A stretch of DNA of 64,000 bases from Candidatus Aldehydirespiratoraceae bacterium (lineage in GTDB: Bacteria > Actinomycetota > Acidimicrobiia > Acidimicrobiales > Aldehydirespiratoraceae): positions 1,029,988 to 1,093,987 of the forward strand of contig OZ240617.1 in assembly GCA_965198365.1 (NCBI GenBank), written 5' to 3'. The notes under the pieces were generated by a model, which worked only from the letters and a program-made list of their open reading frames with translations, had not been told where the DNA came from and ran no database searches. The translations under genes and the position numbers were made by a program. Positions 21,009 to 49,545 of the stretch are shown here, one piece after another; position 1 is the stretch's first letter, and every line of letters starts with the position of its first letter.

Positions 21009-21018
21009 GCCGATCGGC

Positions 21019-22846: not shown

Positions 22847-22981
22847 GGTTTACGTTTTTTAGGGATTGAGCCCGTAAACGTAAACCTCTGGCACGATTTT
22901 GGGTCATAGGTTTACGTTTCTGGAGATCTGAGCCTGTAAACGTAAACCTCTGGCACGATTTGAGGTATGTGGTTTACGTTT
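22847..22981. repeat. 62-bp tandem repeat x2.2, each unit with a palindrome GGTTTACGTTT-N18-AAACGTAAACC
   Basis: GGTTTACGTTT at 22847, 22909 and 22971. Partner AAACGTAAACC at 22876 and 22938. Shared tail TCTGGCACGATTT. AT-rich relative to its surroundings. Confidence 0.85.
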
Positions 22982-23219: not shown

Positions 23220-23566
23220 GTCAACAGTGGATGCGAATTTCGGTAGTGATTACCGGTTTTGCACGGTATTGACTACCGAAATCGCACAGATTGCGAATCT
23301 GGTCGGGGAGTCGGTGCTAGCGGGGTTGGCAGGGGCACCGGGAACCAGCAGGCCACCCAGCCAAGGAGCCAGAACAAACAACGCGAAACCCCAGCCCCGA
23401 CCCATCAGCGCGATGCGCGTGGGGTGGGAAACTCGCCACTCCTAACTTCACGCGGGGACGCGGGGGCGGGGTGTGTCGGCGTCCCAGGTGAGGGGTTGGG
23501 GGTTCTGGATCCCGCTACGTCCAACTTCACGCCCAGCCCAAGTGCGTCAGCGCGATGCGTGTGGGG

Positions 23567-26500
23567 TTAGCTGGGGGGCCAGCGGCGGGCGATGATCTTG
23601 TCGCGTTCGGCGGGGTCGGTGATGGAGAGAGTGGAGGTGGGGGTGCGGTGCCAGAAGATTTCCTGGTCGGCCTTGCGTTCTTGGATGGGATGGCCGGATG
23701 GTTCGATACTGATGCGGGCAAGTTGGTTGCCGTCTACGGTGTGGAACTCCCAATCGATGAGGGCGAGAGCAGCGTCGCCGAGGCGGGAGCGGACGAGGTT
23801 CTCCAAGTGTTGGCCCCATAGGTCGTGGTCGCCCCGTTCGCCGCGTTTAGTAAAGGTCGCGTAGTCGTCTTCCAGACCGTGGATGGAGCCGTCGTCGGCC
23901 ACGCCGATCAGCAGGGTGCCACCGAATTTGGAGTTGGCGAACCCGGCGATGGTCTTGATGGCGGTGTCCTCGGTAACGCCTCCTTTGCGCTGCGCTTTGA
24001 TGTCCCAGCGCAGCGTGGATTTGTATTCCAGGTGCAGCGACTCGCGGTCAGGTCCGATCAGGTCGCCGATGGGGCAGGTTCGTTGTCGGGCGACGGTCGC
24101 ACGCTTCTGCACGTCGGGAGCAAACAACGCGATGAGAGCACTTTGCAATTCGCTGTTGTCCAGATAGCTGAACACCAGTTTGTCGTTGCGGTCGAGGCGT
24201 GACAGCAGTGCGTCTTGGAACCGCGCGGGGAACACATGGTCGCGGAACGTGGCCTCATCATTGTTGGTTGCCTGGTTCTGTATCTCGATATCGGAGACCA
24301 GGTCTCCTGCGGCGGCTTGGAACACGAGTTTGTCTTCCTCGGTCCAGTCCGTACCGAAGCGTTCGTTGAAGCGGGCGATGATCTCCGAAAGGTGTTCGGC
24401 TTCGAGATCGGCGAGTGGGCCCGCGCCGGAGTAGATCGTGGTCACCTCGGCTTCGCCGCTCGGCAGTTCAATCGAGCCCTCGAAGGTCAGGTCGTGCCGC
24501 AGGTGTGTGAGTTCTACTTCGGCACCCAGGTTGATGCGGTCGGTGCCTGTGCGGTCACGGATCAGTGCGGCCAAGGCTCGACAGAAGCGGTAGTCGCGCT
24601 CGAGCTCGGCGTTGCGGAACCGCACCACGAGCGACAGGAAGCTGTACACACGCACAAACCGGCCCAGAGCGTCGCGAAAAGAGTCCTGGTCATCTTCGGA
24701 GAGTGCATTGAACCGGTCAACGGCCGGTTGCATGGCTGCGTCGATCTGGGCGTGGGTGCCTTCGCTCAACAGCAGGGTGGAGGCACGCTCCATCTCTCCC
24801 TGGTCGAGCACATCGAACCGGTCGAGTTCGTGACGGGTGTCGAACAGCAGGTTGGGGTCGGTGGGCGGGGCGACGGTCTTGCCGTGGTAAACGGCGAATG
24901 CTTCTTGAATCTCATCGGCTTCGTTCACGAAATCAACGACGAACGTTCCTGTCTTGGCGGGGTGGATCCGGTTGAGCCTTGAGAGGGTCTGAACAGAGGC
25001 CAGTCCGGTGAGTGTCTTGTCGACGTACATGGCGGCGAGCTTGGGCTGATCGAAACCGGTCTGGAACTTCTCGGCGACCACCATGATCTGCCATTCGTCG
25101 GTGTCGAAGCGTTGAGCGGTCTGCGACTCTCCGAAGCCGTTGGCCCTGGTCTCGGTGAGTCCGTCAACCTCGCCGGAGAACGCCACGAGCACGCCGAGGT
25201 CGTAGCCGAGGTTGTTGGCATGGCTCCGCAGCGCTTTCCACATCCGCACGGCATGGGGCCGTGACGAGCACACCACCATCGCTTTGGCTTTCCCTCCGAC
25301 TTGGCCGGCAATTTTGCGACGGAAGTGCTCGACGATGATCTCGGCTTTCTGCGCCAGATTGTCTGGGTGAAGTGTCACAAATCTGGCGAGCGCGCTGCGG
25401 GCCTTGCTGGTGTCGTATGCGGGATCGTCGAGGATTGATTTTTCGAGATGGAAGTACTGGTTGTAGGTGAGATAACCGGCCAGCACATCCATGATGAAGC
25501 GTTCTTCGATGGCTTGACGCATGGGGTACAGGTGGAAAGGCTCGTGTTTGCCGTCTCTGACCTCGCCGAACATCTCGAGGGTGCGGCCTTTGGGTGTGGC
25601 GGTGAACGCGAAGAAGGACAGGTTGGGCTGAGGACCCCGCGCTGTCACCGCTTCTGCGAGCAGTGTTTCGGCGTCGGTCGGTTCGTCTTCGCTGTTCGCC
25701 TCAACCTCCGGCTCGGCAGAACCCAGAGCACGACGCAGCTCAGCGGCGGCCTGACCGGTCTGCGAGGAGTGGGCTTCGTCGACTATGACCGCATAGTTGC
25801 GTTCAGGTACCTGTTCGATCTTGTCGAGGATGTAGGGGAACTTCTGCAGGGTTGTGACGATGATCCGGGCCTGCTCACCGACCAGGGCTTCGGCCAACTG
25901 TGCCGATGACTCGTCGATGCGCTGCACGACCCCGATTGCGTGCTCGAACTGGCTGATGGTGTCTTGAAGTTGCCGGTCAAGAACGATCCGGTCGGTGATG
26001 ACCACCACCTTGTCGAACACATTGGTATCGGTTTGGTTGTGCAACGATGAGAGCCGGTGGGCCAGCCAGGCGATCGAGTTGGACTTTCCGGACCCTGCTG
26101 AGTGTTGAACCAGGTAGTTGCGGCCCGCTCCGTTCTCTCTGGCGTCGGCTTCGAGTCGACACACGGCATCCCATTGATGGAACCGGGGGAAGATCACTTC
26201 TGGTCTGGCCCGCGAGCCCTTCGATGGTTTGATCACATGGATGAACCGCTTGAGGATGTCCATCAAGGCGTCGCGGCTCCATAGCTGTTGCCACAGGTAC
26301 GAGGTCCGGTGACCGTCGGGGTTCGGCGGGTTGCCCGCGCCGAGTTTGTGCCCCTGGTTGAACGGCAGGAACCGAGTTCGGGTGCCGGCGAGGTGGGTGG
26401 TCATCGCCACAGAGGATGGATCGACAGCGAAGTGCACCATGCCGGTCCGGCTCAGGGTCCGGTTGCGGTGCGGCCGGTGTCGGTATTGGGCGATGGCATT

Positions 26501-27019
26501 CTCGACGGTTTGGCCTGTGTAGGGGTTCTTGAGTTCGGCGGTGGCCACCGGTATGCCGTTGACGAACAGGGCAAGGTCGATCGTCTGGTTGCTGGAGGGA
26601 TCGAACGGCAGCTGCCGGGTCACCGTCAACACGTTTGCTTCGTAGCGTTCGGCCAACTCCGGCGTCAGCCCATGTGCCGGTTTGAAGTAGGCGAGCTTGA
26701 TTGTGACGTTGCGGTCCACGACACCGTTGCGCAGCACATCCACGGTGCCGCGCTTGTCGAGTTCGGATGCGAGTCTCCGCACGAACCCGGACTGCGCTCT
26801 GTTGGCATCGCCTCCGTAGGCGGAGTCCAGTAGCCGCTCCCACTCTTTTGGCTGGGTAGCCCCGATGAACACGAACAGATCAGCGGTGTCTACGCCCGCC
26901 ACGGCGTCGAAGTCCCTCGGGCCGTCTCCAACGTTTCCGATCTTCACCTGCCGGTAACCGCCGTGTTCAAGTAGCCAGGAGGCGATCTCGTCCTCAAACA
27001 CCGCTTCCGTCAAAGACAT
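23567..27019 (-). CDS. hsdR: Type I restriction enzyme R subunit with a C-terminal AlbA_2-like (Schlafen/divergent-AAA DNA-binding) domain
   Basis: N-terminal nuclease motif IDLALFVNGIPVATAELK, QHSAGSGKSNS Walker A, VIVDEAHSSQ DEAH box. C-terminal ESLHLEYKS...IAGFANSKFGGTLLIGVADDGSIHGL. Start MSLTEAVFEDE with GGAGG upstream. Confidence 0.9.
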   Translation of the reverse strand: MSLTEAVFEDEIASWLLEHGGYRQVKIGNVGDGPRDFDAVAGVDTADLFVFIGATQPKEWERLLDSAYGGDANRAQSGFVRRLASELDKRGTVDVLRNGVVDRNVTIKLAYFKPAHGLTPELAERYEANVLTVTRQLPFDPSSNQTIDLALFVNGIPVATAELKNPYTGQTVENAIAQYRHRPHRNRTLSRTGMVHFAVDPSSVAMTTHLAGTRTRFLPFNQGHKLGAGNPPNPDGHRTSYLWQQLWSRDALMDILKRFIHVIKPSKGSRARPEVIFPRFHQWDAVCRLEADARENGAGRNYLVQHSAGSGKSNSIAWLAHRLSSLHNQTDTNVFDKVVVITDRIVLDRQLQDTISQFEHAIGVVQRIDESSAQLAEALVGEQARIIVTTLQKFPYILDKIEQVPERNYAVIVDEAHSSQTGQAAAELRRALGSAEPEVEANSEDEPTDAETLLAEAVTARGPQPNLSFFAFTATPKGRTLEMFGEVRDGKHEPFHLYPMRQAIEERFIMDVLAGYLTYNQYFHLEKSILDDPAYDTSKARSALARFVTLHPDNLAQKAEIIVEHFRRKIAGQVGGKAKAMVVCSSRPHAVRMWKALRSHANNLGYDLGVLVAFSGEVDGLTETRANGFGESQTAQRFDTDEWQIMVVAEKFQTGFDQPKLAAMYVDKTLTGLASVQTLSRLNRIHPAKTGTFVVDFVNEADEIQEAFAVYHGKTVAPPTDPNLLFDTRHELDRFDVLDQGEMERASTLLLSEGTHAQIDAAMQPAVDRFNALSEDDQDSFRDALGRFVRVYSFLSLVVRFRNAELERDYRFCRALAALIRDRTGTDRINLGAEVELTHLRHDLTFEGSIELPSGEAEVTTIYSGAGPLADLEAEHLSEIIARFNERFGTDWTEEDKLVFQAAAGDLVSDIEIQNQATNNDEATFRDHVFPARFQDALLSRLDRNDKLVFSYLDNSELQSALIALFAPDVQKRATVARQRTCPIGDLIGPDRESLHLEYKSTLRWDIKAQRKGGVTEDTAIKTIAGFANSKFGGTLLIGVADDGSIHGLEDDYATFTKRGERGDHDLWGQHLENLVRSRLGDAALALIDWEFHTVDGNQLARISIEPSGHPIQERKADQEIFWHRTPTSTLSITDPAERDKIIARRWPPS

Positions 27020-27128
27020 CACCGTCACCTCCCCCTCGGCCTGAACGCCCCACACACCCTAGAAGCAAGCGAACTGAACCGTGAAGCCGACCCCCAGGTG
27101 ACTAGATTTCGGCACCTTGAGGTCCGGC

Positions 27129-27317
27129 TCAGTCGGCGGTGCGGTTGTCGCGACGCAACCGAATCGCTTCTAGGAACTCTTCGTCGCTGTAGTAGCGCGC
27201 GGCTATCTCGTCCTCTGGTACGTCGGGAACACTGCAGACACTGGCATCCATCTCGGCGAGCGTGACAGTCCGTCCGTTTGTGTCAGAGTCGGTGTCGGCT
27301 TCAGGGATGGTGCTCAT
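27129..27317 (-). CDS. small acidic protein encoded directly upstream of hsdR
   Basis: 62 aa with 16 Asp/Glu against 6 Arg. Conserved in the decayed copy at 21019..21207. 110-nt gap to the hsdR start. Confidence 0.55.
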   Translation of the reverse strand: MSTIPEADTDSDTNGRTVTLAEMDASVCSVPDVPEDEIAARYYSDEEFLEAIRLRRDNRTAD

Positions 27318-27427
27318 GGTTTCGTCCCTCTCGATCCCGAACGGTCACTACGATGTTAGTCCCCAAGGGTGCCCCGAAGAACTCCAAGGCGTTGATGCGA
27401 GAGTGTGGAAGGAGTGTGATCCCCGGT

Positions 27428-31437: not shown

Positions 31438-32466
31438 CTAGCCCTGGGAGTGGTGGATTATCTGACGTCTCGCCTCCCCGCGCTTGATCGCGTTTGCGAT
31501 GTGCTCAGAGGTGACGCACTTGTCAAGACCGCTCACCATTAATCGGATGGCGTCAAGGGCCACTGCCTCTACTTCAGCCGCGCTGAAGGATTCCATTTCC
31601 TTGGCGGATTCAAGCAAATCGAAGTCGTACCGTACCGCTCTCAGCTTCAACGCCAATATCTCGGATCGAGCGGACTGGTCGGGAGACTCGAACTCCACTA
31701 TCTCGTCGAACCGTCGCCAGACTGCGGAGTCCAGCAACGTAGGGTGATTCGATGTGGCAATGAAGAGCGAGTCGCTTCGATGATCGTCGACCACCTGCAG
31801 CATCGCGGCGACCACCCGACGCAACTCGCCGTGATCGGCCCGATCTCCTCGTTCCCGCCCGAGCATGTCGAATTCATCAAAAACCAAAACCCAGGATCCC
31901 ACATCGAGAAAACTGAAGATTTGTTCAAGGTGTCGTGCTGTTTCGCCTAGGTATGACGAGACGATCGTGGCCAACCGAACGCGGGCTATGGGAAGCCCGA
32001 GCTGTGCGGCCGTGGCCTCGGCGCTTGCTGATTTACCGCTTCCTGGAGGCCCTACCAAGAGTACGCTCGACCGTGGCGAGACTCCGTGTGCTCTCAGTGC
32101 CGACCGTTGACGGAACTCTTCGACCAGCGAATCGAACACATTGACAGCAGACTCGGGTAGAACCAAGTCATGGAACGACAGGCGTGGTTCCTCCAGCGAT
32201 ATCAGTGGGAGGTCGTCGCGAGTCTTGGGTAGAGGCCGTAGCGAAGATACCTGGGGAGGCCTTCGTCGGTGTCCTGGTTCTTCAAGGATCGCCTCAAGCT
32301 GCTCGGCGACGAGATCGTGGCGTTTGCGCCTCTCATCATCGATCAGTTCTTTTGCGGCGCGCTGAAACCCAGCATCGTCGCCCCGCTGATGACTGCGGAG
32401 CAGCGCTTTCACCAAGTCACTGCGTGCCACGCCATGAACATACTTGCGCACTGTGCCACCGACCAC
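31438..32466 (-). CDS. classical AAA+ ATPase (single AAA module, helical N-terminal region)
   Basis: VLLVGPPGSGKSASAEA Walker A, WVLVFDEFD Walker B, SNHPTLLDSAVWRRFD second region of homology. Confidence 0.85.
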   Translation of the reverse strand: MVGGTVRKYVHGVARSDLVKALLRSHQRGDDAGFQRAAKELIDDERRKRHDLVAEQLEAILEEPGHRRRPPQVSSLRPLPKTRDDLPLISLEEPRLSFHDLVLPESAVNVFDSLVEEFRQRSALRAHGVSPRSSVLLVGPPGSGKSASAEATAAQLGLPIARVRLATIVSSYLGETARHLEQIFSFLDVGSWVLVFDEFDMLGRERGDRADHGELRRVVAAMLQVVDDHRSDSLFIATSNHPTLLDSAVWRRFDEIVEFESPDQSARSEILALKLRAVRYDFDLLESAKEMESFSAAEVEAVALDAIRLMVSGLDKCVTSEHIANAIKRGEARRQIIHHSQG

Positions 32467-34839: not shown

Positions 34840-36093
34840 ATGGGACCGACAGAACTCCACCGAGGACTGAACCTCGGGGACGCCCAGAACCTTCGCGGTC
34901 TATGGCAGCATGCACCGTCTCCCCGGTCGATCATTACCTCACCGCCCTATCTCGACATGCACGATTATGGAAACGCTTCTCAGATCGGCTTCCGTGGGCA
35001 GAGCGTCCGAAATTACCTTGAACAGATGGCCAGACTCTTTAATGATTGCTACGAGATCACAACTGATGACGCGACCTTCTGGCTCGTAGCGGGCTCACTG
35101 AGAAGAAAGGGGCGGCTCATACCTCTGCCCGACAAGCTCACCGCCTGCGCAGAAGACGCGGGTTGGTTGTTGCGGGAGTCGATCACATGGGATAAGCAGA
35201 AGGCTCTGCCGTGGACCCACCATGGTGAGCTAAGGGACATCACTGAACAGGTGCTACTATTCTCCAAGTCTGGAGACTTCGCGTTCGATCCGAGCGAACT
35301 TCGCTCTCCCATCCCGAACTCAGTTTGGTGGCGTAGGTACCCAGAACGATATTCCCCGAGCGGACGCATGCCGACGAACTTGTGGAGCATTCCTATTCCT
35401 ACGCAAGGTTCGTGGACCGGAGTCCGGACTCACCTCTGTCCTTTCCCACAGGAGCTCACCTACAGGATGCTGTCGTTGACCACCATTGAGGGCGATACCG
35501 TTCTAGATCCTCTGGCCGGTATCGGATCGGTCCCAGCGATGGCAGAGGCGATGGGCCGAGTTGGCTACGGACTCGAGCTCACTGCTGAATACGCGGATAT
35601 GTACGAGTGCACCGCGCAATCCGCTAAGGACTTCTTGTCTCAGATCGACGACGACCGTTGCGTTCGGGAAGCGTTCGAGCGAACGATCATTGAACTCAGG
35701 CTACTCAAGTTCGCCAAGCTGTTAGGTCAACAGGTTACGGATGCTGGGCTCGCCGTGTCGTGGGTGCGCGCCAAAAAGAGTTCTCGACAGCCAAGACAGG
35801 ATTTCCAGGTTGCGGCAGGAGAATTTGATCTCGTGTTGAGCGATGGCTTATCACCCGAGTCCGCTCTCACCGTCGCTCATTCCGCCATTCAGCGGAAGCC
35901 GTTGTCAAAGTTCGGGATCGACGCGGAGATTATCCCGGTGGATCGGACGGAAGCCACTACGCACGGGTACTGGTACTCGGCCGGGTGGTTCTGGAAACCA
36001 CCCGTGGCCGCAAAACCGACGGACGGTGGCCCGCACGTAGTAGCTGAATTCTACCCAAATCCTGATCAGATTGATGATACACCATACATTTAA
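34840..36093 (+). CDS. beta-class N4/N6 DNA methyltransferase with an unassigned ~150-aa C-terminal extension
   Basis: IITSPPY (motif IV) precedes VLDPLAGIGSVP (motif I), the circular permutation of beta-class amino-MTases. Confidence 0.85.
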   Translation: MGPTELHRGLNLGDAQNLRGLWQHAPSPRSIITSPPYLDMHDYGNASQIGFRGQSVRNYLEQMARLFNDCYEITTDDATFWLVAGSLRRKGRLIPLPDKLTACAEDAGWLLRESITWDKQKALPWTHHGELRDITEQVLLFSKSGDFAFDPSELRSPIPNSVWWRRYPERYSPSGRMPTNLWSIPIPTQGSWTGVRTHLCPFPQELTYRMLSLTTIEGDTVLDPLAGIGSVPAMAEAMGRVGYGLELTAEYADMYECTAQSAKDFLSQIDDDRCVREAFERTIIELRLLKFAKLLGQQVTDAGLAVSWVRAKKSSRQPRQDFQVAAGEFDLVLSDGLSPESALTVAHSAIQRKPLSKFGIDAEIIPVDRTEATTHGYWYSAGWFWKPPVAAKPTDGGPHVVAEFYPNPDQIDDTPYI

Positions 36094-36223: not shown

Positions 36224-37777
36224 ATGACTGAAGACAATCATATGACTGAAGACAATCAACAACGTGTCCCAGCGATAAGGGTGAAACAGTGGCTAAAACT
36301 GTGGGATGCTTACACCTTCAATGAGGCAGCACGTCAGAGAAAGCCAGAGCCACACTTCTACATATGCTCTATGTCAGCACCCCTGTTGAGAAGGTTGTCT
36401 GGAGTACGACGTCGCGAAGCTTCGGGGCCACGAAGCGCCGATATCGGGATTCAACGAGGCCACGACGAAGAACGATCCCGAGAGATACGACGTTTCGTCA
36501 TCGCGGGATATCCATGGGCAAGCCTCAACACTAAGGATCAGTCTCGATTTCCAAACCTAAAGAAACCGGGATGGCTACCTACCGCGGTTGTTGCGAATTT
36601 GGTCCGTGAAACGACCGACAGAGACGGAATTAAGGCCTCTCCTCAGGATCTGATCACCATTGAAACAGAAGTGGACGGTCGCGTATATCTCAAGCTGCCA
36701 AAAGGCTCCGAAGATCCCTCGTGGGAACTATCCGAACACGGGTTAGAACCCCTGGAGATTATCGATGGCCAGCACAGGCTATACGCGTTCTCAGAAGATG
36801 ATGAGTTGGAAGGAGATTTTGAGCTTCCTGTCGTGGTGTTCGAAGACCTCGATATTGGTTGGCAAGCGTATCTCTTCTGGTCAATCAATGTATCACCAAA
36901 GCGGATCAACCCATCAATGGCATACGACCTTTATCCACTGTTACGAACGGATGATTGGCTGGAACGCGTCGAGGGACCAATGGCATACCGCGAAACGCGG
37001 GCGCAAGAGCTCACCGAGGCGCTGTGGAGCCACCCAGACAGCCCTTGGCGCGACAGAATCGGAATGCTTGGTCGCGAGCGTGGGAAGGTAACGCAGGCGG
37101 CCTTCGTGAGGTCGCTAACTCTGAGCTTCGTTCGCGGATGGTCAGGCGGTAGACGAACCGGGATCGGAGGATTCTTTGGAACTGAGCAGACCGAAAAACA
37201 AACTGACGTGCTAGGCTGGAATCGATCACAACAAGCTGCTTACCTGATAGCGCTTTGGTCAAGTCTGAGAGATGCTATAGAAGGTTCTGACTCTGAGTGG
37301 GTCAAGAATCTTCGTGAGCGAACCAAAGAAGACGATGCGCCCGAGAAGCTAGACCCGGCATTCGCTGGCCGATTCTCAATCCTGGCTACAGATCAAGGAG
37401 TCCGCGGGTTCCTCCAGGTTTGCAATGACATTTCTTACGAGCGCCGCCATGAAATCCCTTTCGGGGAGTGGCGGCGACCAACAGCGGCGGGAGCAACAGA
37501 TCTAGAAGAAGTCAGCGAAGCTCTAGACGAACTTCCGGGACCAATCAAGGAGTTTATTCGAGCCCTGACTGGGAACATCTCAACCTTTGACTGGCGCTCA
37601 GCCGTCACGCCAGGGTTACCGGATAACATTGAAATCTTTCAGAGCCGCTATCGTGCCGGCAGCGGGTACAAACAGGTACGGCTCCAGTTGTTGCTCCATC
37701 TATGTGAATCCGGTAACACCGACATAGCCGATAGTGCGCGGTTCGTAGCCCGAGCACTGGGCTACTCCGAGGACTAA
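36224..37777 (+). CDS. DGQHR-domain protein (DndB/DpdB-like, ParB-fold)
   Basis: IGIQRGHDEERSREIRRFV and EIIDGQHRLYAF signature, then LFWSINVSPKRI. Confidence 0.85.
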   Translation: MTEDNHMTEDNQQRVPAIRVKQWLKLWDAYTFNEAARQRKPEPHFYICSMSAPLLRRLSGVRRREASGPRSADIGIQRGHDEERSREIRRFVIAGYPWASLNTKDQSRFPNLKKPGWLPTAVVANLVRETTDRDGIKASPQDLITIETEVDGRVYLKLPKGSEDPSWELSEHGLEPLEIIDGQHRLYAFSEDDELEGDFELPVVVFEDLDIGWQAYLFWSINVSPKRINPSMAYDLYPLLRTDDWLERVEGPMAYRETRAQELTEALWSHPDSPWRDRIGMLGRERGKVTQAAFVRSLTLSFVRGWSGGRRTGIGGFFGTEQTEKQTDVLGWNRSQQAAYLIALWSSLRDAIEGSDSEWVKNLRERTKEDDAPEKLDPAFAGRFSILATDQGVRGFLQVCNDISYERRHEIPFGEWRRPTAAGATDLEEVSEALDELPGPIKEFIRALTGNISTFDWRSAVTPGLPDNIEIFQSRYRAGSGYKQVRLQLLLHLCESGNTDIADSARFVARALGYSED

Positions 37778-39524: not shown

Positions 39525-40841
39525 TTAAGGAGAGATGAGTCCGACCGTTAGCGTTTCGGTTGTCAGTCCTGGTACTGCCAGATCACGGGTCACGGCTGCG
39601 GTGATCAGTGCGGTCCGGTACTCCTCCAAGAGCTTGATCATGGCCTCCGCCTGCGAGGACAGACCGTCGATGCGATTCGTCTGACGGTCGAGAAACGCTG
39701 CGATGTCGCGCTGTTCGTCGAGGGGCGGAAAGGGGACGAGTGCTTCGCCGACGGCGGGCTTTGGAAGCCCGAAACGCGTGATACCTGTGGCCGCCACTCG
39801 GAGTTGGCAATTCACCGCATCCGACTGCATTGCTCGGAACACGAAACCGGGATTCGCTAACGGAGTCGGTCGGATGATGCCGAGGTGATATCCACAAACG
39901 AAGTCATCGGCCGTTTCTTCGATGAGCGCGGGCACAGCAATATCCTGCCAGTCCTCGGAGTCCTTTGTGATTACAACGTCGCCTTCGTTCAGTCTGAATC
40001 GAACGAACTCTTGTGGTGACGCTGTTGCTTCCATGAAACTGCTGTCGCCAGCCCGAATGCGGTTCCCGTAGTAGACGTCGGTGTAGTTGCACAGCCTGAC
40101 AGGCAGTTCTCCTTCCTTAGTCTTCTTGTCAACGTTGCTCGTCCGATATGACACCCGATACTTGAGGCGCAGAACCTCCCAGTGGGCGGGGATGTGGCCT
40201 AGCCAGTCCATGCCGGAGGGGCGGAGGCGGGGTGAGGGATCGAAGCCGCGGGTTACGGTCTGGGTGATTAACGCTGTGCGGTGCTCTGCGAGGAGTTCGA
40301 TGAGGCGGCGTTTCTTGGAGATGAGGGTGTCGATGCGGGCGGTTTCGGTGTCGAGGTAGTCAGCGATCGCCTGTTGCTCCACAAGGGGCGGAAGAGAGAC
40401 AGGGATGTCGCGGAACTGCTCCCAGCTAATGTCGAACTGCGACGGCGGAAGGCACTTCCCACGACGTTCGTACTCACTGATGTATAACCGCGTTCGAAGC
40501 AGATGATGTACGAATCTTGGGTTGGCTTCGTCGGAGATCTCCGCGACAAAGTAGGCGGGGCTGATAATGCCGTGGTGGTGGGAAACACCTAGAGCGCCGT
40601 GGGGTTTACCCAACTGATTCATTACTAAATCGTTTGGTCTCACTTCTTGGTACCCGCTGAGATCGAGAGATGGAGCGGTACGGCCGTCGCCCTCCTGTCT
40701 AGGTACCACTCCCTTGGGTAGGTTCACCGACAGGAGTTGCAGGTCAGAACGGTTGGTTTGTTTTCGACGCGTGAGAAATGAACGGAGCTTCGTTGGTCGC
40801 CACTCGGGAGGAGCGATTACTGAATCAAGTACCGAAGTCAC
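39525..40841 (-). CDS. hsdS: Type I R-M specificity subunit
   Basis: Two TRD halves, each followed by the conserved LPPL.EQ..IA..LD....RID.L...........LLEE.R.ALI helix (VSLPPLVEQQAIADYLD... and VPFPPLDEQRDIAAFLD...). Confidence 0.85.
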   Translation of the reverse strand: MTSVLDSVIAPPEWRPTKLRSFLTRRKQTNRSDLQLLSVNLPKGVVPRQEGDGRTAPSLDLSGYQEVRPNDLVMNQLGKPHGALGVSHHHGIISPAYFVAEISDEANPRFVHHLLRTRLYISEYERRGKCLPPSQFDISWEQFRDIPVSLPPLVEQQAIADYLDTETARIDTLISKKRRLIELLAEHRTALITQTVTRGFDPSPRLRPSGMDWLGHIPAHWEVLRLKYRVSYRTSNVDKKTKEGELPVRLCNYTDVYYGNRIRAGDSSFMEATASPQEFVRFRLNEGDVVITKDSEDWQDIAVPALIEETADDFVCGYHLGIIRPTPLANPGFVFRAMQSDAVNCQLRVAATGITRFGLPKPAVGEALVPFPPLDEQRDIAAFLDRQTNRIDGLSSQAEAMIKLLEEYRTALITAAVTRDLAVPGLTTETLTVGLISP

Positions 40842-42889
40842 TCGGCTACCTCGGTGAGGAGAGTTTGGATTTCTGCTTCTAGAGTTTTGATTTCGGCGTT
40901 GATCTCGGTGAGGGGGCGGGGTGGGGTGTAGGTGTAGAAATGGCGAGTTAGGGGGATCTCGTAGCCGATCTTCGTCTTGTCAGGGTCGTGCCAGGCGTCG
41001 GAGACATAGGGGAGCACCTCGGTTCCCATGTAGTCGTCGATGGCTGTCCGGTACTCGATGGTCCCGAGCCGCGCTGTGGGGTCGTCCTCGAAAGTGACAC
41101 TCACCGCGGGGAGCGGGATGTTCTCGTAGTCGCGAAGGTCAGGGTCGGGTTTGGGGTGACCTGAGCGGTCGGTGATGATCGGTGCCTCGGGGTCACGCAC
41201 CGCAATAGCTCCGGTAATGGCATTGGCAAGCGCGGTGGTCTTGCCCAGACCGGCCGAATCGAGTGCTTCTGATATCACAGCTTTGGCCAGCTTCTCGGTG
41301 GCGAACGAACTGCCCAGTCGCTCCCTCAACGCATCGAGCAGAGCGTCGCGCAACGAATGATCCAGCTTGCCGACAGCCTTGAGCGACTCGACGGCCAACA
41401 AGGTGTCGTCGGTGATCTCCCAACGCAACTGCAAAGGCCGCTCCACGGTGATGCGTAGGAACCCGAATGCCTCGTTGGGGAAGATCTTGACAAGCGGACC
41501 CTCTTCGAAAGAGCCGTAGAGACGGGCGATCTCGTCAATTTGCGCTACCGAGAGCTCCTTACGTTTCTGGCCGAGGGACTTGCGGGTCTTGGTGAAAATG
41601 TCGCGGGCGTCAACAAGCTGGATCTTTCCCCGACGGCGGGGTGACTTACGATTCGTGACCACCCAGAAGTAGGTGGAGATCCCGGTGTTGTAGAAGAGTT
41701 GGTCGGGCAAGGCAACAACCGCTTCGAGCATGTCGTTCTCGATGATCCAGCGGCGGATCTCCGACTCGCCCGAACCCGCACCTCCGGTGAACAGTGGCGA
41801 CCCGTTGAACACAATCGCCAAGCGGGCGCCGCCCTCGCGTGAAGTCTTCATCTTCGAGATCATGTGCTGCAAGAACAAGAAGCTGCCGTCGTTGATGCGA
41901 GGCAACCCAGCCCCGAAACGGCCGGCGAAACCCAGAGCCGAATGCTCGCCCTTCACCGTCTCGGCCACCATTTTCCACTCCACCCCGAAAGGAGGATTGG
42001 CGAGCAGATAATCGAAACGCTCGCCCTGGTGTTGGTCGTTGTCGAAACTGTTGCCGAAACGGATATTGGAAGCTTCCTGACCCTTGATCAGCATGTCGGC
42101 ACGGCAAGTGGCATACGTCTCGGCGTTCAACTTCTGGCCGAACACTCTCAAACGAGCCTGAGGGTTGAGCTTGCGCAGGTGATCCTCGGCGACCGACAGC
42201 ATCCCGCCGGTTCCACACGCCGGATCAAGCAGCGTCTTGACCACACCCGGGCGCGTCAACAACTCGTCGTCGTCGATGAACAACAGATTCACCATCAGCC
42301 GGATCACCTCACGAGGCGTGAAATGCTCACCCGCCGTCTCGTTCGACAACTCAGAGAACTTGCGGATCAGCTCCTCGTAGAGATAACCCATCTCCAGATC
42401 CGACACCGTCTCGGGACTCAAGTCGATATCGGCGAACATCGACACCACCAGATACAACAGGTTGTGCTCGTCAAGCCGATCGATCTGCACGTCGAAGTTG
42501 AACTTGTCGACAATGTCACGCGCCGACTCGGAGAACCCGGCGATGTAGTTGCGCAAGTTTCCGGCCACGTTGTTGGAATCACTCAGCAGCGAGCGAAACG
42601 TATGCCTCGACGTGTTGACGAACGGTTGCCCAGCCACCCTCTGCAAGACCGGCTCACGGTTCTCCAGCGTCGGCGGCAACTTCGCCATCGTTTCAAGAAC
42701 CGCATCCTTGGTCGGCTCCAACACGCAATCCAACCGCCGCAGCACTGTCAACGGAAGGATCACGCGTCCATACTCCGACGGCTTGTACACACCCCGCAGC
42801 TTGTCCGCGACCGACCAGATGAACCCCGCATGATTGTTGATGGCCGTTTCGCTCATTGATTCCATTCCCGACATGCGTGCGGTCGTCAC
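40838..42889 (-). CDS. hsdM: Type I R-M N6-adenine methyltransferase subunit
   Basis: LLDPACGTGGML (motif I), LLANPPFGVEW (NPPF motif IV). 4-bp overlap with hsdS. N-terminal HsdM_N-like IWSVADKLRG. True start may be the internal Met at about 42856. Confidence 0.9.
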   Translation of the reverse strand: MTTARMSGMESMSETAINNHAGFIWSVADKLRGVYKPSEYGRVILPLTVLRRLDCVLEPTKDAVLETMAKLPPTLENREPVLQRVAGQPFVNTSRHTFRSLLSDSNNVAGNLRNYIAGFSESARDIVDKFNFDVQIDRLDEHNLLYLVVSMFADIDLSPETVSDLEMGYLYEELIRKFSELSNETAGEHFTPREVIRLMVNLLFIDDDELLTRPGVVKTLLDPACGTGGMLSVAEDHLRKLNPQARLRVFGQKLNAETYATCRADMLIKGQEASNIRFGNSFDNDQHQGERFDYLLANPPFGVEWKMVAETVKGEHSALGFAGRFGAGLPRINDGSFLFLQHMISKMKTSREGGARLAIVFNGSPLFTGGAGSGESEIRRWIIENDMLEAVVALPDQLFYNTGISTYFWVVTNRKSPRRRGKIQLVDARDIFTKTRKSLGQKRKELSVAQIDEIARLYGSFEEGPLVKIFPNEAFGFLRITVERPLQLRWEITDDTLLAVESLKAVGKLDHSLRDALLDALRERLGSSFATEKLAKAVISEALDSAGLGKTTALANAITGAIAVRDPEAPIITDRSGHPKPDPDLRDYENIPLPAVSVTFEDDPTARLGTIEYRTAIDDYMGTEVLPYVSDAWHDPDKTKIGYEIPLTRHFYTYTPPRPLTEINAEIKTLEAEIQTLLTEVAE

Positions 42890-43871: not shown

Positions 43872-46292
43872 ATGCCCCGACAACTCGAATTCGACCCCAG
43901 CTACGCCCGCGAAGTTGTCGATGTACCCGTTGCCGACGAGCTGAGCGAGTCGTTCCTCGCCTACTCACTCAGCGTCATCACTTCACGGGCCATCCCCGAC
44001 GTACGAGACGGCCTCAAACCGGTGCAACGCCGGATCCTCTGGTCGATGCTGCAAATGGGGGTCCGTCCAGGCACACCGTTCCGTAAATCCGCTCGCATAG
44101 TCGGCGACACCATGGGCCGTTACCACCCCCACGGCGACTCGGCCATCTACGACACCTTGGTACGTATGGGACAGGACTTCTCGCGGATGCTCCCGTTCAT
44201 CGACCCCCAAGGCAACTTCGGTTCGCTAGACGATCCACCCGCAGCCTCGCGCTACACCGAATGCCGCCTCGCTGAAGCAGCCATGGACATGGTCCGCGAA
44301 CTCGACGAAGACACCGTCGACTTCCGCTCCACCTACGACGGTGAAGGCGAAGAACCAGCTGTGTTGCCCGCCGCGGTGCCCAACATCATCGTCAACGGCA
44401 CCAGCGGGATCGCTGTCGGTATGGCCACCAACATGGCCCCGCACAACCTGCGTGAGGTGGCCGAGTTGATCAGGCTGGTGATGACCAGACGGCGGCCCAA
44501 GCCGACCATCGACGAGATGATGAGAGTGCTCCCGGGTCCCGACTTCCCGTCGGGCGGCACGGTGGTTAACGACGGCTTGCGTGATGCATACGAGTCCGGG
44601 CGTGGATCGTTCCGTATCCGAGCAAAGGCCGAACCCGAGCAGATCACGCGCTCCCGTCAAGCTCTGGTCGTCACCGAGTTGCCATATCTGGTGGGGCCCG
44701 AGCGGGTGATCAGCAAAGTCCAGGAATTGGTCAACAACGGCAGACTCGCCGGCATCGCGGGCATCTCCGATCTGAGCGACATGAAAGGGCTGCGTATTCA
44801 GATCGACCTGAAACCCGGAGTCAAGCCGCGGTTCGCACTCCAGGACCTGTACCGGCTGACGCCGCTGGAGGAGACGTTCGGTATCAACAATGTGGTGTTG
44901 GTCGGCGGCGTGCCGACCACGCTCGGCATCTACGACTTGTGTCACCACTACATAGAGCATCGCCTTGACGTGATCGTTCGCCGCACCGAATATCGCCTCG
45001 CCAAAGCGCAGGATCGCCTGCATATTCTCGAAGGCCTGCTGGTTGCCATTGACGCGATAGATGAGGTCGTTGCCATCATCCGCGACTCTCAGGATGCGGC
45101 CGAAGCCCGGGTGAGGCTGATCGAACGGTTCCTGCTGACCGACATCCAGGCGGCCCACATCCTCGACATGCCACTGCGCCGACTCACGGCCCTGGCCAAG
45201 CTCGAACTTGAAGAAGAAGCCACCGGGCTTCGCATCAACATTGCGGAGTACCACAAGCTTCTCAACTCTGAGACCAGGCGCCGTACTTTGGTGCTCAAGG
45301 AGCTTGACGAACTCGTTGACCAACACGGCGTGCCCCGACGATCTGAGATCGTTGCCGCTACCGAGATTGTGGTGCATGAACAACCCACCCGCGACGACAC
45401 GCAAACTGTTGGTGTCGATGAGCCATGCGTGGTAACCCTGTCCACCTCCGGCAACATTGGACGCGCCCCGACCAACGGTGCGAGAAGGGCAACGGTGGGT
45501 CGCCACGATCTGATTGCCGCACGCGCCATGACCACCACGGGCGCTGAGATTATGGCGGTCACGTCGGAGGGTCGGGTCATAGCGGTGCGGGTGCAGGAAG
45601 TTCCCGATGCTGCCGGCCGTGCCCGCGGAGTAGCGGCCGCTGTGCTGCTCGGGCTCAACAAAGGCGAGACGGTATTGACGCTGCTCACAGACGGCGAGGA
45701 ACGGCTAGTGCTGGTGACCGCCAATGGTGTCGCCAAGCGCCTGACGCTTGAGGAGTTGATGAATACCAGGTCGTCGGCGACCGTCATCTCGTTGAAAGGT
45801 GATGATCGTGTGGTGGCCGCGTTTCGTGCGCCGCTGGGTGTCGACATTGCCTTGGTTGCTTCTGACGGCCAGGTATTGCGCACTCCCGTTGATCCGATCA
45901 ACGACCAGGGCCGGGGTGCTGGAGGTGTGGCCGGTATGAGATTGCTCGGTGATGCCGAGGTCGTGGGGGCCGATGTGTTACTGGGCGATGGCGTAGTGCT
46001 GACGGTCACCAGCGCCGGGGGTGTCAAGGCAACGCCGTATGGTGACCTGCTTGCGAAGGGCCGCGGCGGTCAGGGTGTACGCATCGCCAGGTTGGCCGTC
46101 GGTGAGACAGTTACGGGCACTTGGTTCGGGCCAGCGGCTATGACAGATGTCTATGCGCTAATGGCTGACTACGACGACCCCCGCAAGCTCGACCCCAACC
46201 CCGTCGCGTTCAACATCGAAGCAAGTGCCCGTGATCTGGTGCCGAGCCGCACTGAGCGCCAAATTATGGTCGTCGCAGACGCTCGCTGGTAA
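43872..46292 (+). CDS. parC: type IIA topoisomerase subunit A (topo IV ParC-like / GyrA paralog)
   Basis: AIPDVRDGLKPVQRRILW, HPHGDSAIYDTLVRM, AASRYTECRL (active-site Tyr). About 800 aa, without a recognisable GyrA box. Confidence 0.8.
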   Translation: MPRQLEFDPSYAREVVDVPVADELSESFLAYSLSVITSRAIPDVRDGLKPVQRRILWSMLQMGVRPGTPFRKSARIVGDTMGRYHPHGDSAIYDTLVRMGQDFSRMLPFIDPQGNFGSLDDPPAASRYTECRLAEAAMDMVRELDEDTVDFRSTYDGEGEEPAVLPAAVPNIIVNGTSGIAVGMATNMAPHNLREVAELIRLVMTRRRPKPTIDEMMRVLPGPDFPSGGTVVNDGLRDAYESGRGSFRIRAKAEPEQITRSRQALVVTELPYLVGPERVISKVQELVNNGRLAGIAGISDLSDMKGLRIQIDLKPGVKPRFALQDLYRLTPLEETFGINNVVLVGGVPTTLGIYDLCHHYIEHRLDVIVRRTEYRLAKAQDRLHILEGLLVAIDAIDEVVAIIRDSQDAAEARVRLIERFLLTDIQAAHILDMPLRRLTALAKLELEEEATGLRINIAEYHKLLNSETRRRTLVLKELDELVDQHGVPRRSEIVAATEIVVHEQPTRDDTQTVGVDEPCVVTLSTSGNIGRAPTNGARRATVGRHDLIAARAMTTTGAEIMAVTSEGRVIAVRVQEVPDAAGRARGVAAAVLLGLNKGETVLTLLTDGEERLVLVTANGVAKRLTLEELMNTRSSATVISLKGDDRVVAAFRAPLGVDIALVASDGQVLRTPVDPINDQGRGAGGVAGMRLLGDAEVVGADVLLGDGVVLTVTSAGGVKATPYGDLLAKGRGGQGVRIARLAVGETVTGTWFGPAAMTDVYALMADYDDPRKLDPNPVAFNIEASARDLVPSRTERQIMVVADARW

Positions 46293-46311: not shown

Positions 46312-47406
46312 TCAGGTGAACTGATCGAGTGCGTCGATGATTCTTTGTTGCTGGTCGGAGTTGAAGCCGTTGAAAGGTCGGGAGCCTTCGGTCAGGTCGG
46401 CGTTGAGCAGAATCATTGAGCTGTTGACGTTGATCCCGTATTGCCGCCAAGTTGTGAACGATGGATCCCACACCATGGTCGGTGTCGTGACTCCGAAGTC
46501 GGTGACGAAGCTGAGGGCCAAATTGAAGTCGTCTTGGGCGCCCATGCCGATGACTTGGATCTCGTTGATGTGCTCTCGAGCGAACTGCTCGACATGCGGC
46601 GCCTCGCGCCGACAAGTCGGTCAATGAGGCGCCCAGAACCACAACAGCACCGGTCGGTCACCGTCGACGGCGTCGGCCAGAGAGGTTATAGACCCGTCGG
46701 CGACGCTCAGGACTTGAATGCGCCGCCTGTCGCTGTTGGGTTGCAACAACGGGTCGTTGGCTGCCGCTGCTTCGAGGATCTCTTCTCGGGTGAGGGTTTT
46801 GGCGGTCGTGGTTGTTGGTGCCGCTGTGGTTGTTGGTCCGGCTGTGGTTGTTGATTCTTCGGTGATTGTCGATTCTTCGGTGGTGGCCGGTTCTTCGGTG
46901 GTAGTGGAAGCTTCGGTGGTTGTTGGTCCGGCTGTGGTTGTTGATTCTTCGGTGGTTGTTGGTCCGGCTGTGGTTGTTGATTCTTCGGTGGTTGTTGGTT
47001 CCTCGACGGTTGTGGGTTCTTTGGTGGTTGTCGTGATTGTTGTGGTTGCAGGACCTTCGGTTGTGTCGGATTCTCCCTCCGGTGTCGTGGTTTCGGTGGG
47101 CGCGGGATCAGGTACAGGTGTCCCTACCGTGGCGTCGCCATCGTCGGTCGCCGGTGTTGTCGGGGTTTCGGCAGGTGCGGGTTCAACTGTGCCTTTTTCT
47201 GTGCTCGAAGGCGCGTCCGAAGGATTTGTGGGCTCCGGCTCGAGAGGTGCGAGTGTGGTTGTCGCGAAAACAGCATCCTCCGACTCGTCTGGTGTCGAAG
47301 AATCACCCTCGCTGCTGCAAGCCGCGGCCAAACTGGCGAAGGCGATAGTGATCGCTAGTGTCAACGTAGGTAGTCGCTTGGGATTCAAGGCCTCAATCTT
47401 ACCCAA
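46312..47406 (-). CDS. TlpA/ResA-like thiol:disulfide oxidoreductase lipoprotein with an in-frame TGA at the first Cys of CxxC (candidate selenoprotein, or a pseudogene)
   Basis: ORFs 46621..47406 and 46312..46545 are in the same frame, separated only by TGA 46621-46623. Read-through gives LLWFWAPH-[TGA]-PTCRREAPHVEQF. Lipobox SLAAAC. Thr/Glu-rich linker. Confidence 0.65.
46590..46619 (-). promoter_or_regulatory. SECIS-like stem-loop 1 nt downstream of the in-frame TGA
   Basis: Minus strand: UGA-C-[CGAC]UUGU[CGGCGC]GAG[GCGCCG]CAU[GUCG]. A 4-bp lower and 6-bp upper stem, with a G-containing triloop 16-18 nt from the UGA. Confidence 0.4.
46826..46990. repeat. 36-nt in-frame repeats encoding the TTEESTTTAGPT linker
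   Basis: ggttgttggtccggctgtggttgttgattcttcggtg occurs three times (two in tandem) inside the lipoprotein linker. Confidence 0.75.
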
Positions 47407-47457: not shown

Positions 47458-49545
47458 TTGACCGTGATCACCCTCGATTCGTTGGATTCCGCCTTGGCCG
47501 CAACCACCTCAACCGCTTACGACGCTGATGCGATCGAGACCCTTGAGGGCATGGAAGCCGTGCGCAAACGGCCGGGCATGTACATCGGCGGTACCGGCAG
47601 CGCAGGACTCATGCACCTCGTATGGGAGTTGATCGACAATGCTGTTGATGAGGCCGCAGCCGACTTTGCAACCAAGGTGGATGTCACTCTGCACCGCGAC
47701 AGATCGGTGGAGGTCAGCGACAACGGCCGAGGCATCCCCATCGACCGACACGCCAAACGCAAGGTTTCAGCGGTGGAAGTGGTGTTCACCGAGTTGCATG
47801 CGGGGGGCAAGTTCGGTGGAGGCGCCTACTCGTCATCGGGTGGTTTGCACGGAGTCGGGGCGTCGGTTGTCAACGCCCTGGCCAAAAAATTGACCGTCGA
47901 GGTTGACCGTGACGGTGGCACGCATGTGCTGGGTTTCAAGAACCGTGTGGCGGGTCAGTTCAACGGACGGGACGACTTCGACGCTGGTCATCAACTCCGG
48001 AAACTCAAGCGCATCCCAAGAAACCGGACTGGCACGCGAGTGCGCTTCTGGCCCGATTTCGAGATTTTCAAACCCGATGCCAGCGTCGACTTCGACGAGG
48101 TCTGTGAACGGGTGATTCAGGCGTGTTTCCTAGTGCCGACTATGCAGGTATCAGTTACCGACAAACGAGCGGGTGGCGCTGCCGAACCGTTCGTGTTCGC
48201 TAGTAAGGGAGGTCTCGCTGACCTTGTCGATCACCTCTCGGACTCTCCGCCGGTCTGTGGCGTCATCACCGGCAACGGCATCGACACATTCGTCGAAAAG
48301 GTGCCGGTCAACAAGAAGATGACAGACGTTGAGCGGGAATGCACCGTTGATATCGCGCTGCGTTGGGTTGACGGCTACGACACGAAGGTGGTGTCGTTCG
48401 TCAACACCATCCCCACCCCACAGGGTGGAACCCATTTGGCGGGATTCGACAAAGCCCTGACACGGGTAATCAACAACGTGGTGCTCAAGGACCACCACAA
48501 ACTCGCAAGACTCGCAAAACAAAACAAGCACAAAGCTGTCAAGGACGATGTACAGGAGGGCCTGGTAGCAGCGTTGAAAGTGACCTTCGCAGAACCACAA
48601 TTCCGCGGGCAGACGAAACAGGAATTGGGCACTCCCGCAATCGACGGAATTGTCAGCCGGGTGGTGTACGAACAACTCAAGGAGTGGTTCGAGCCCGGTG
48701 GAGGGCCCCGCACCCATGTCAAAGCGATTGCCGACAAGCTGTCGAACGCAGTTCAAAGTCGGGTCGCTTCCAAGACCCTGCTGGAGAACCAGCGCAAGGC
48801 GGCGAGTCTCGGTTCAACCGGGATGCCTCAAAAGCTCGCCGACTGCCGGATTCACGGAATGGATGCGGAACTGATTCTGGTGGAAGGGGACTCTGCGGCC
48901 GGCCCCGCCAAAAGGGGTCGCAACTCTGAAACGATGGCGATCCTGCCGCTACGGGGCAAGGTGGTCAATGCCCACAAGGCCAGCCAGAAGCAGGTGCTCG
49001 ACAACGCCGAGGCGCGGGCGTTGTTCACTGCCATGGGTGCTGGAGCGGGCGAAAAGTTCGACATCGAAGACACCCGTTATGGCCGCATAGTGATCTTGTG
49101 CGACGCCGATGTTGACGGTAGTCATATTCGTTGCCTGCTGTTGACCCTGATCTACAAGTACATGCGGCCGATGCTGGAAGCGGGCCGGGTATTTGCGGCC
49201 CAACCCCCCTTGTTCACCACCAAAATCGGAGATGAGACATATCGGGTCTACTCCGAAGAAGAAAAAGAGGCGGTGACTGATGAGCTGTGCAAAGGCAACC
49301 GTCGGCGAGAGAATGTCAAGTGGCAGCGCTTCAAGGGACTCGGCGAAATGAACGTCGAGGAATTGCGTCACTGCGCACTTGATCCGAATACTCGCACTCT
49401 GCGTCGGCTCACCATGGACGATGGCGCCCAGACAAAGGAAGCCCTTGAGATGTTCGAGGTTCTGATGGGTACAGACGTGTCGAGCCGACGCGAATTCCTA
49501 GTGCGAAACAGCGCCATAGTAGACAGCACAACCCTCGATATCTAG
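47458..49545 (+). CDS. parE: type IIA topoisomerase subunit B (topo IV ParE-like / GyrB paralog)
   Basis: EGMEAVRKRPGMYIGGTG, LVEGDSAAG, PLRGKVVN, LCDADVDGSHI (Toprim). TTG/GTG start. Confidence 0.85.
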   Translation: MTVITLDSLDSALAATTSTAYDADAIETLEGMEAVRKRPGMYIGGTGSAGLMHLVWELIDNAVDEAAADFATKVDVTLHRDRSVEVSDNGRGIPIDRHAKRKVSAVEVVFTELHAGGKFGGGAYSSSGGLHGVGASVVNALAKKLTVEVDRDGGTHVLGFKNRVAGQFNGRDDFDAGHQLRKLKRIPRNRTGTRVRFWPDFEIFKPDASVDFDEVCERVIQACFLVPTMQVSVTDKRAGGAAEPFVFASKGGLADLVDHLSDSPPVCGVITGNGIDTFVEKVPVNKKMTDVERECTVDIALRWVDGYDTKVVSFVNTIPTPQGGTHLAGFDKALTRVINNVVLKDHHKLARLAKQNKHKAVKDDVQEGLVAALKVTFAEPQFRGQTKQELGTPAIDGIVSRVVYEQLKEWFEPGGGPRTHVKAIADKLSNAVQSRVASKTLLENQRKAASLGSTGMPQKLADCRIHGMDAELILVEGDSAAGPAKRGRNSETMAILPLRGKVVNAHKASQKQVLDNAEARALFTAMGAGAGEKFDIEDTRYGRIVILCDADVDGSHIRCLLLTLIYKYMRPMLEAGRVFAAQPPLFTTKIGDETYRVYSEEEKEAVTDELCKGNRRRENVKWQRFKGLGEMNVEELRHCALDPNTRTLRRLTMDDGAQTKEALEMFEVLMGTDVSSRREFLVRNSAIVDSTTLDI

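Follow-up and report, generated by a model that had tools for sequence, protein, structure and literature searches.

A conserved in-frame UGA followed by two RNA hairpins in a DsbE/DsbF-like lipoprotein gene of Acidimicrobiales, a predicted selenoprotein

Thioredoxin-fold selenoproteins that carry selenocysteine (Sec, U) in a UxxC motif have been predicted since 2004-2005 (PMC1088965; PMC5029168 Table S3; PMC13188914). These predictions include a "Thiol-disulfide isomerase-like protein" (TlpA-like, cd02966), a "Thiol:disulfide interchange protein" and a "Prx-like thiol:disulfide oxidoreductase", and the listings hold four sequences from the Sargasso Sea (PMC1088965) and five proteins from three organisms (PMC5029168 Table S3). 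In this study, we analyze a gene on the minus strand of a 64,000-nucleotide (nt) stretch of DNA from a Candidatus Aldehydirespiratoraceae bacterium (contig OZ240617.1, positions 1,029,988 to 1,093,987), hereafter the window, in which an in-frame TGA falls on the first position of a CxxC-type motif. We hold with high confidence that 47388..46312 is one intact selenoprotein gene. Its predicted product is an extracytoplasmic lipoprotein of about 358 residues, in which a signal peptide with a lipobox precedes a long Thr/Pro/Glu-rich tether and a C-terminal thioredoxin-fold domain. The gene belongs to a known kind, the UxxC thiol-disulfide oxidoreductase selenoproteins, and as such will not surprise specialists; what is known of how Sec is decoded is left unchanged. 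Compared by description only, the described UxxC proteins and the window protein have in common a TlpA/AhpC-TSA-type thioredoxin fold that bears UxxC, and their Cys homologs are widespread. The family found here may be the "Thiol-disulfide isomerase-like" family itself or a sister family, and it is our conjecture that the three organisms of Table S3 are the three Acidimicrobiales of that dataset.

The best relatives of solved structure are DsbF (Rv1677; PDB 3IOS, E = 3e-13) and DsbE/Mpt53 (Rv2878c; PDB 1LU4, E = 4e-10) of Mycobacterium tuberculosis. DsbF is a predicted lipoprotein, and both M. tuberculosis proteins reportedly act as oxidases. The window protein shares with them the actinobacterial extracytoplasmic thioredoxin fold and the context of the active site, where WFWAPH-U-PTCRREAP stands against WFWAPWCPTCQGEAP and the UxxC follows a WxWAxW-type beta1 strand, as in the WFWAPWCPTC of DsbF. 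A match to the thioredoxin-fold motif of the WAPWC type had already been seen by an earlier reader who worked from the letters alone (hereafter the sequence-only reading), and the alignment of WFWAPHCPTCRREAP to WFWAPWCPTCQGEAP of DsbF bears it out. In contrast to DsbF and DsbE, the window protein has Sec for the first Cys, His for the Trp before the active site, Ser at the aligned cis-proline (..QQP in DsbF, ..WQPAF in DsbE) and an extra linker of about 200 residues; overall identity is modest. The Ser, which by alignment only takes the place of the conserved cis-proline loop, is not peculiar to the window: in the sequence alignment, 57 of the 66 Sec forms read N-S at this position and eight read Q-P, whereas the 20 Cys homologs have Q-P in 14 and N-S in three cases. 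Loss of the cis-proline is unusual for a thioredoxin fold.

Once Cys is written for Sec, the C-terminal 162 residues of the read-through protein match three Pfam families across the TGA site: Redoxin (PF08534; 4e-10, 40.0 bits against a cut-off of 26.6), AhpC-TSA (PF00578; 4e-9, 36.9 bits against 26) and Thioredoxin (2e-6). For this family, every NCBIfam model stays below its cut-off. The scores for DsbE (TIGR00385, NF011941), ResA (NF002854), TlpA (NF047696) and StoA (NF041202) are all far under it (e.g., 35 versus 123 bits for dsbE and 28.8 versus 170 bits for ResA), and the protein is therefore not to be named as any specific equivalog. NF041054 (ResA-like WAxxUGC motif protein) and NF053656 (TUGYCR-motif) likewise describe ResA-like or redoxin proteins with Sec in the active-site turn, but the window motif is WAPH-U-P-T-C, i.e., UxxC, and not UGC or TUGYCR. 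Neither model is listed for the window domain at E <= 0.01, and the Cys homologs P0033 and P0041 touch NF041054/NF053656 only far below the cut-off (21.8 versus 300 and 16.4 versus 100 bits).

An exhaustive search of 1.84 billion representatives with the part after the TGA returned 133 relatives. Many of them are short C-terminal fragments, presumably additional Sec forms that gene callers have truncated. Full-length homologs were inspected in 20 cases, and in all 20 Cys is aligned to the TGA (WAPHCPxC; e.g., WAPHCPTCRGEAP and WAPHCPVCRREAP), and these proteins mostly start with a signal peptide and a lipobox-like motif. By this alignment the family forms a Cys/Sec pair at the first position of the motif. 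Because of the Pfam matches, the alignment to DsbF and DsbE and the Cys homologs, the window protein is a predicted DsbE/DsbF/TlpA-like envelope thiol-disulfide oxidoreductase.

The minus strand from 47406 to 46312 is one reading frame, shared by the open reading frames (ORFs) 47406..46621 and 46620..46312, and the TGA at 46623..46621 is its sole internal stop, as the sequence-only reading had stated. Read-through gives ...DGDRPVLLWFWAPH-TGA-PTCRREAPHVEQFAREH..., and a second TGA (46314..46312) is the terminal stop. While the frame does run to 47406, the likely start of the gene is the TTG at 47388, because this codon is kept in close relatives and one of them (L004) has a stop just upstream of the corresponding position. 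The lipobox SLAAAC and the repetitive Thr/Glu-rich linker, both noted earlier from the letters, are present. The former reads ..FASLAAAC, with the codon of its Cys (C24) at 47319..47317; the latter is rich in Thr, Pro and Glu and contains an 18-nt (6-amino-acid) tandem repeat in about 12 copies at 46808..47048. Lipidation of the window protein is predicted from this motif. Most N-terminal fragments of relatives likewise show a lipobox-like [AST][AG]C, and the lipoboxes of homologs include LLAACG, LTACG and ASACS. The coding length upstream of the thioredoxin-fold domain ranges widely among relatives, from 85 to 440 codons. A fragment in ENA (P0003), 93% identical to the N-terminal part of the window domain, carries, where the window has its signal peptide, a different N-terminus of twin-arginine-like type (SRRRFLGRTAAGAG...LTAC), and judging from this N-terminus the export route may differ among relatives.

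Relatives were fetched with the peptide pattern GDRPVLLWF, scanning one genome per GTDB species; since this pattern lies upstream of the stop, the codon at the TGA site is unbiased by the search. The scan gave 65 loci, one per GTDB species, which are 38-96% identical and come nearly all from metagenome-assembled genomes (MAGs) of Acidimicrobiales, the closest being the Ca. Aldehydirespiratoraceae chromosome OZ240616.1 (96% identity). Besides OZ240616.1, the complete chromosomes with this gene include OZ242187.1, OZ220692.1, OZ242337.1, OZ244898.1 and OZ243951.1. A TGA stands at the first CxxC position in 65/65 species, a Cys codon in 0/65, and TAA or TAG never occurs there. It is followed by 98-105 in-frame codons in all loci save two, L061 with a longer tail and L034 with a second in-frame TGA four codons past the Sec codon (U-P-T-C-TGA-R-E), and the final stops are a mixture of TGA, TAG and TAA. 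The ratio of nonsynonymous to synonymous substitution rates (dN/dS) after the TGA is 0.10-0.18 for the window compared with L005-L010, equal to that before it, and the medians are 0.28 downstream (169 pairs) and 0.25 upstream. Purifying selection acts with equal strength on the two sides of the TGA. The conserved in-frame TGA, the Cys aligned to it in 20/20 full-length homologs and the low dN/dS beyond it are standard comparative marks of a bacterial selenoprotein.

A protein search gave 27 relatives, of which 24 are N-terminal fragments that all stop at ...LLWF[WFY][AS]PH, and the other three are C-terminal fragments starting right after ...PH; gene callers split the gene at the TGA in every database entry seen. 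TGA closes 16 of the 29 long ORFs in the window, the selenoprotein gene included, and as it is a normal stop here the code is not reassigned and recoding is site-specific. The base 5' of the UGA is U in 66/66 sequences and the base 3' of it C in 65/66, giving a U-UGA-C context. UGA-C is a weak termination context.

Some observations on the carriers and on single codons stand beside these results. The second TGA of L034 (L034:10124-10140) falls inside the first of the two hairpins described below, and in this MAG it may mark an error of sequencing, a copy in decay or another codon that is recoded. His directly before the UGA (46624-46626 and its orthologs) is encoded by CAT in 65/65 sequences with His, compared with 30% CAT elsewhere in the domain, where CAC outnumbers CAT by 51 to 22. 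Two carriers, L026 and L039, are labeled as Verrucomicrobiales and Chthoniobacterales MAGs, yet their genes are typical of the Acidimicrobiales family, which suggests binning contamination or horizontal transfer.

Like the selenocysteine insertion sequence (SECIS) of E. coli fdhF and bacterial SECIS (bSECIS) elements in general, the window has a stem-loop inside the coding sequence just 3' of the UGA. It differs from the fdhF element in that it shows no sequence similarity and no bulged U, and in that two adjacent hairpins are present, both under selection. The sequence-only reading had proposed a single hairpin at 46619-46590. This structure exists as the minimum-free-energy fold of the window RNA (-23.9 kcal/mol, z = -1.9 versus shuffles), and its upper stem, which we call hairpin 1, is supported by comparison. 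The lower stem CGAC/GUCG is not: among 63 distinct sequences it changes almost only one-sidedly, it takes up the 5' arm of hairpin 2, with which it competes, and in an ungapped alignment of 66 sequences (A3; TGA in columns 10-12) column 42 covaries with column 56 in hairpin 2 and not with column 15 in the lower stem. The apical loop does contain G, but its distance from the UGA, given earlier as 16-18 nt, is 15 nt by bSECIS counting. This loop is a conserved Glu codon, GAR (GAG in the window). In a fixed register, 72.6% of cells in hairpin 1 are paired and six of the seven pairs show double-sided changes; against resampling of synonymous codons with the family's own codon usage, which served as the control for hairpin stability, the mean z is -1.8, with p <= 0.05 in 53% of sequences. 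The register shifts in a subgroup with C-R-x-E-R-x, where the hairpin is still there.

Directly 3' of it lies hairpin 2, which is better conserved and closer to the consensus, and the hairpin proposed earlier is therefore not the best SECIS candidate. Its loop AGUUC, 34 nt after the UGA, has G at position 2 followed by U, and 96.3% of its cells are paired. Pair 44:54 is AU in 47, GC in eight and CG in seven sequences, its 3' partner being an Ala codon's third base; at pair 42:56, 40 sequences have CG and 18 have UA. The rare Ala codon GCU, which makes up 11% elsewhere in the family, is chosen in 47/47 sequences where the partner is A. Under the same resampling the mean z is -3.1, and p <= 0.05 in 90% of sequences. 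None of the five Cys homologs for which DNA was retrieved forms hairpin 2, including two that encode the same EQFA peptide but use GCC. Published bSECIS ranges are a loop of 3-9 nt with a G within its first two nucleotides, followed by G or U, a stem of 4-16 bp, a spacing of 16-37 nt and an energy <= -7.5 kcal/mol (PMC13188914). Hairpin 2 lies within every one of them, whereas hairpin 1 misses the spacing by 1 nt and its loop G is followed by A. Given its conservation, covariation, stability and full bSECIS fit, hairpin 2 is the likelier candidate for the SelB site, and hairpin 1 may serve as an accessory or as a spacer. Members of the family do not all share one SECIS, as L065, an Ilumatobacter sp. 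MAG, illustrates: at L065:3024-3083 a CCUC-GGUC-GAGG hairpin is possible by eye, with an fdhF-like GGUC loop about 26 nt after the UGA.

Several results weigh against a Sec-decoding gene. ARAGORN found no tRNA-Sec in the 64-kb window and in 60 of the 65 loci (L001-L060), and tblastn found no selA, selB or selD in the window and the flanks of the 65 loci (about 1.2 Mb) with E. coli SelA, SelB and SelD probes, of which the SelA probe was checked (99-100% identical to E. coli entries). As for the RNA, hairpin 1 with its 15 nt is just under the consensus spacing and hairpin 2 with its 34 nt is near the upper limit, the thermodynamics of the window itself favor the extended hairpin that excludes hairpin 2, and hairpin 2 is lacking in L065, the most divergent locus. 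An Rfam scan of the window at gathering thresholds gave no match, bacterial SECIS being thinly covered in Rfam.

Further searches and the literature also bear on Sec decoding in these bacteria. The best 120 matches of a SelA protein search were all from Enterobacterales; in the right flank of the window (L066), bacA, plsY and Mo-cofactor genes were found and sel genes were not; and a screen of the window for other selenoprotein genes by way of in-frame TGA codons with open flanks, too noisy at 60% GC, gave 196 candidates, none of them recognizable. The literature lends indirect support: SelD, SelA and SelB are all recorded, along with 15, 10 and seven known selenoproteins, respectively, for Ilumatobacter coccineus, I. 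nonamiensis and Ca. Microthrix parvicella (Peng et al., 2016, PMC5029168 Tables S1, S2), and selA, selC and selD are present in 84/84 complete genomes of Actinomarina, of the class Acidimicrobiia (bioRxiv 10.64898/2026.04.03.716425). Among the carriers of the gene found here are three Ca. Microthrix sp. (L040, L042, L051) and the Ilumatobacter sp. with L065.

The two fragments that gene callers yield and the lack of Sec machinery in the window would both suit a nonsense pseudogene, in which a TGC- or TGT-to-TGA mutation killed an ordinary CxxC lipoprotein gene, the alternative that had been kept open when the gene was noticed. Such an origin does not agree with the same TGA in 65/65 species down to 38% identity, with a downstream frame that is intact and equals the upstream part in dN/dS, or with downstream synonymous sites that are constrained to retain the RNA hairpins; that the orthologs are copies of one contaminating sequence is excluded by their divergence. 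We give the pseudogene hardly any credence. The chance of a sequencing or assembly artefact in the window is negligible, the identical feature being found in 65 independent assemblies from many projects and platforms. Because of the TGA in all 65 species and a downstream dN/dS equal to the upstream one, pseudogene, artefact and two independent genes are excluded.

If termination at the UGA were real, the product would be a shortened lipoprotein from the N-terminal part, perhaps joined by a C-terminal peptide with its own start, and the hairpins would then have some other role, such as in translational coupling or mRNA stability. UGA is indeed a normal stop in this genome and there is an internal ATG/GTG downstream that gene callers use, yet the internal start positions are not conserved and C-terminal fragments start at differing residues. 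Moreover, the break falls exactly at the catalytic Cys, in the beta1-alpha1 active-site turn of the thioredoxin fold, neither half would fold or contain a complete redox motif, and the codon aligned to Cys is always TGA, never TAA or TAG; we regard termination as highly improbable. Recoding of the UGA to another residue is very unlikely as well, whether to Cys by a tRNA-Sec-like tRNA(Cys), a type described with a UCA anticodon for a few anaerobes, or to Trp by near-cognate read-through. The conserved TGA, the Cys homologs and the hairpin cannot tell which amino acid is inserted, and Sec machinery was found neither in the window nor in the fetched flanks. On the other hand, a UGA at the attacking Cys of CxxC together with a bSECIS-fitting hairpin is the canonical signature of Sec, SelA, SelB and SelD occur in cultured bacteria of this order, together with selenoproteomes of several members, and Trp at this site would destroy the active site. 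The Sec-containing thiol-disulfide oxidoreductase put forward by the sequence-only reading is upheld by the conserved TGA, the Cys/Sec pair, the selection downstream and the structured RNA.

By analogy with described systems, we infer for this selenoprotein Sec insertion at the UGA, a SelB-binding hairpin, lipidation and a redox function with its direction and substrates. The UGA at 46623..46621 would be decoded as Sec by SelB-GTP-Sec-tRNA(Sec), following the canonical bacterial mechanism. SelB would be recruited by an mRNA stem-loop just 3' of the UGA, most likely hairpin 2, with hairpin 1 perhaps acting as an accessory or spacer element. The preprotein would be exported and lipidated at C24, and the selenolate of U256 would be the attacking nucleophile in thiol-disulfide exchange with envelope proteins, forming a selenenylsulfide with the resolving residue C259. 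The window protein may act either as an oxidase or as a reductant.

A more far-reaching proposal, which we consider doubtful but state for its consequences, is that, among actinobacterial envelope oxidoreductases of the DsbE/DsbF-like type, the family forms a branch with an obligate dependence on selenium, a two-hairpin recoding element and a remodeled active site. Sec would then be fixed across the sampled Acidimicrobiales clade (65/65, no reversion to Cys). The distal hairpin with its near-invariant AGUUY loop would bind SelB, while the proximal one would remain folded and, as a spacer, place the distal one at the entrance of the ribosome. The active site would have been remodeled, most members being without the near-universal cis-proline. 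If true, this branch would be a new structural and mechanistic subclass of exported selenoproteins, beyond another UxxC thioredoxin-fold protein.

The gene is flanked on its two sides by a GyrA/ParC-like gene (43872-46292) and a GyrB/ParE-like gene (47458-49545), to both of which it runs antiparallel. This arrangement of topoisomerase genes is kept in 22 of the 65 loci, and other neighbors are not conserved. In L071 the gene sits in the origin cluster dnaA-dnaN-recF-[gene]-dciA-gyrB. The topoisomerase association may simply stem from a place in the core genome that is conserved. Three divergent neighborhoods showed no CcdA, ResB or Sco genes, and no redox partner is encoded nearby. Right past the window edge (L066:13910-16692), moeA, moaA and moaC come first, and after them a giant Calx-beta/fn3 protein with over 2500 residues.

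Further away in the window, the segment 18900-42900 has the appearance of a defense or restriction island, the genes of which are given with the other features in Table 1. Its GC content drops to 0.53-0.58 at 30-40 kb, and HsdM is found in only six syntenic relatives. About 750 nt at 20508-21259 repeat both ends of the hsdR region (23472-27369) with 91-92% identity, 20670-20969 corresponding to 23564-23863 and 21015-21259 to 27125-27369. This looks like what is left of a second copy of the hsdR region after loss of the interior. At 22847-22970 there is also a tandem duplication of 62 nt.

Table 1. Features of the selenoprotein gene and of the island in the window (positions in the 64,000-nt stretch; CDS, coding sequence)
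Feature	Position	Strand	Remark
Read-through selenoprotein CDS (predicted)	46312..47388	-	358 codons + stop; Sec at residue 256
Longest possible ORF start, TTG	47406	-	Not the likely start
Signal peptide with lipobox (MNPKRLPTLTLAITIAFASLAAA|C)	47317..47388	-	Lipidated Cys codon (predicted) 47319..47317
Low-complexity Thr/Pro/Glu-rich linker	46801..47316	-	Holds about 12 copies of the 18-nt (6-amino-acid) tandem repeat
Thioredoxin-fold (TlpA/DsbE/DsbF-like) domain	46315..46800	-	Pfam Redoxin match covers 46701..46423
In-frame TGA, predicted Sec codon (U256)	46621..46623	-	First residue of the U-P-T-C redox motif
Resolving cysteine codon (C259) of UxxC	46612..46614	-	Invariant in 66/66 Sec forms and 20/20 Cys forms
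Hairpin 1, CGGCGC-GAG-GCGCCG (upper stem of the hairpin proposed earlier)	46596..46612	-	-11.3 kcal/mol
Full hairpin proposed earlier, including lower stem CGAC/GUCG	46590..46619	-	Minimum-free-energy fold of the window RNA
Hairpin 2, UCGAGC-AGUUC-GCUCGA, 6-bp stem	46576..46592	-	-8.8 kcal/mol; best SECIS candidate
Ser codon at the aligned thioredoxin-fold cis-proline (GINVN-S-SMILL)	46420..46422	-	Alignment only
True stop codon, TGA	46312..46314	-	Orthologs stop with TGA, TAG or TAA at the equivalent place
HNH endonuclease	18921-20336		In island
HsdR with C-terminal Schlafen/AlbA_2 domain	23567-27055		In island
AAA ATPase	31438-32466		In island
N6/N4 DNA methylase	34840-36093		In island
DndB-like protein	36224-37777		In island
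HsdS	39525-40841		In island
HsdM	40838-42889		In island

In summary, we have described a family of predicted envelope selenoproteins for which the fixation of Sec in 65/65 species, the lipoprotein with a long tether, the two-hairpin element and the Ser at the cis-proline position appear to be undescribed. The work closes in on an annotation gap, as every database entry seen consists of two "hypothetical" fragments, one of them named a phosphate-binding protein. The 66 natural SECIS variants with their compensatory changes provide a substrate for refining models of bacterial SECIS elements in high-GC Gram-positives. With this gene, the envelope redox machinery of an actinobacterial order that is widespread and mostly uncultured gains a predicted selenoprotein that is exported and tethered to the membrane, and recognizing it implies a requirement for selenium in the bacteria that carry it.

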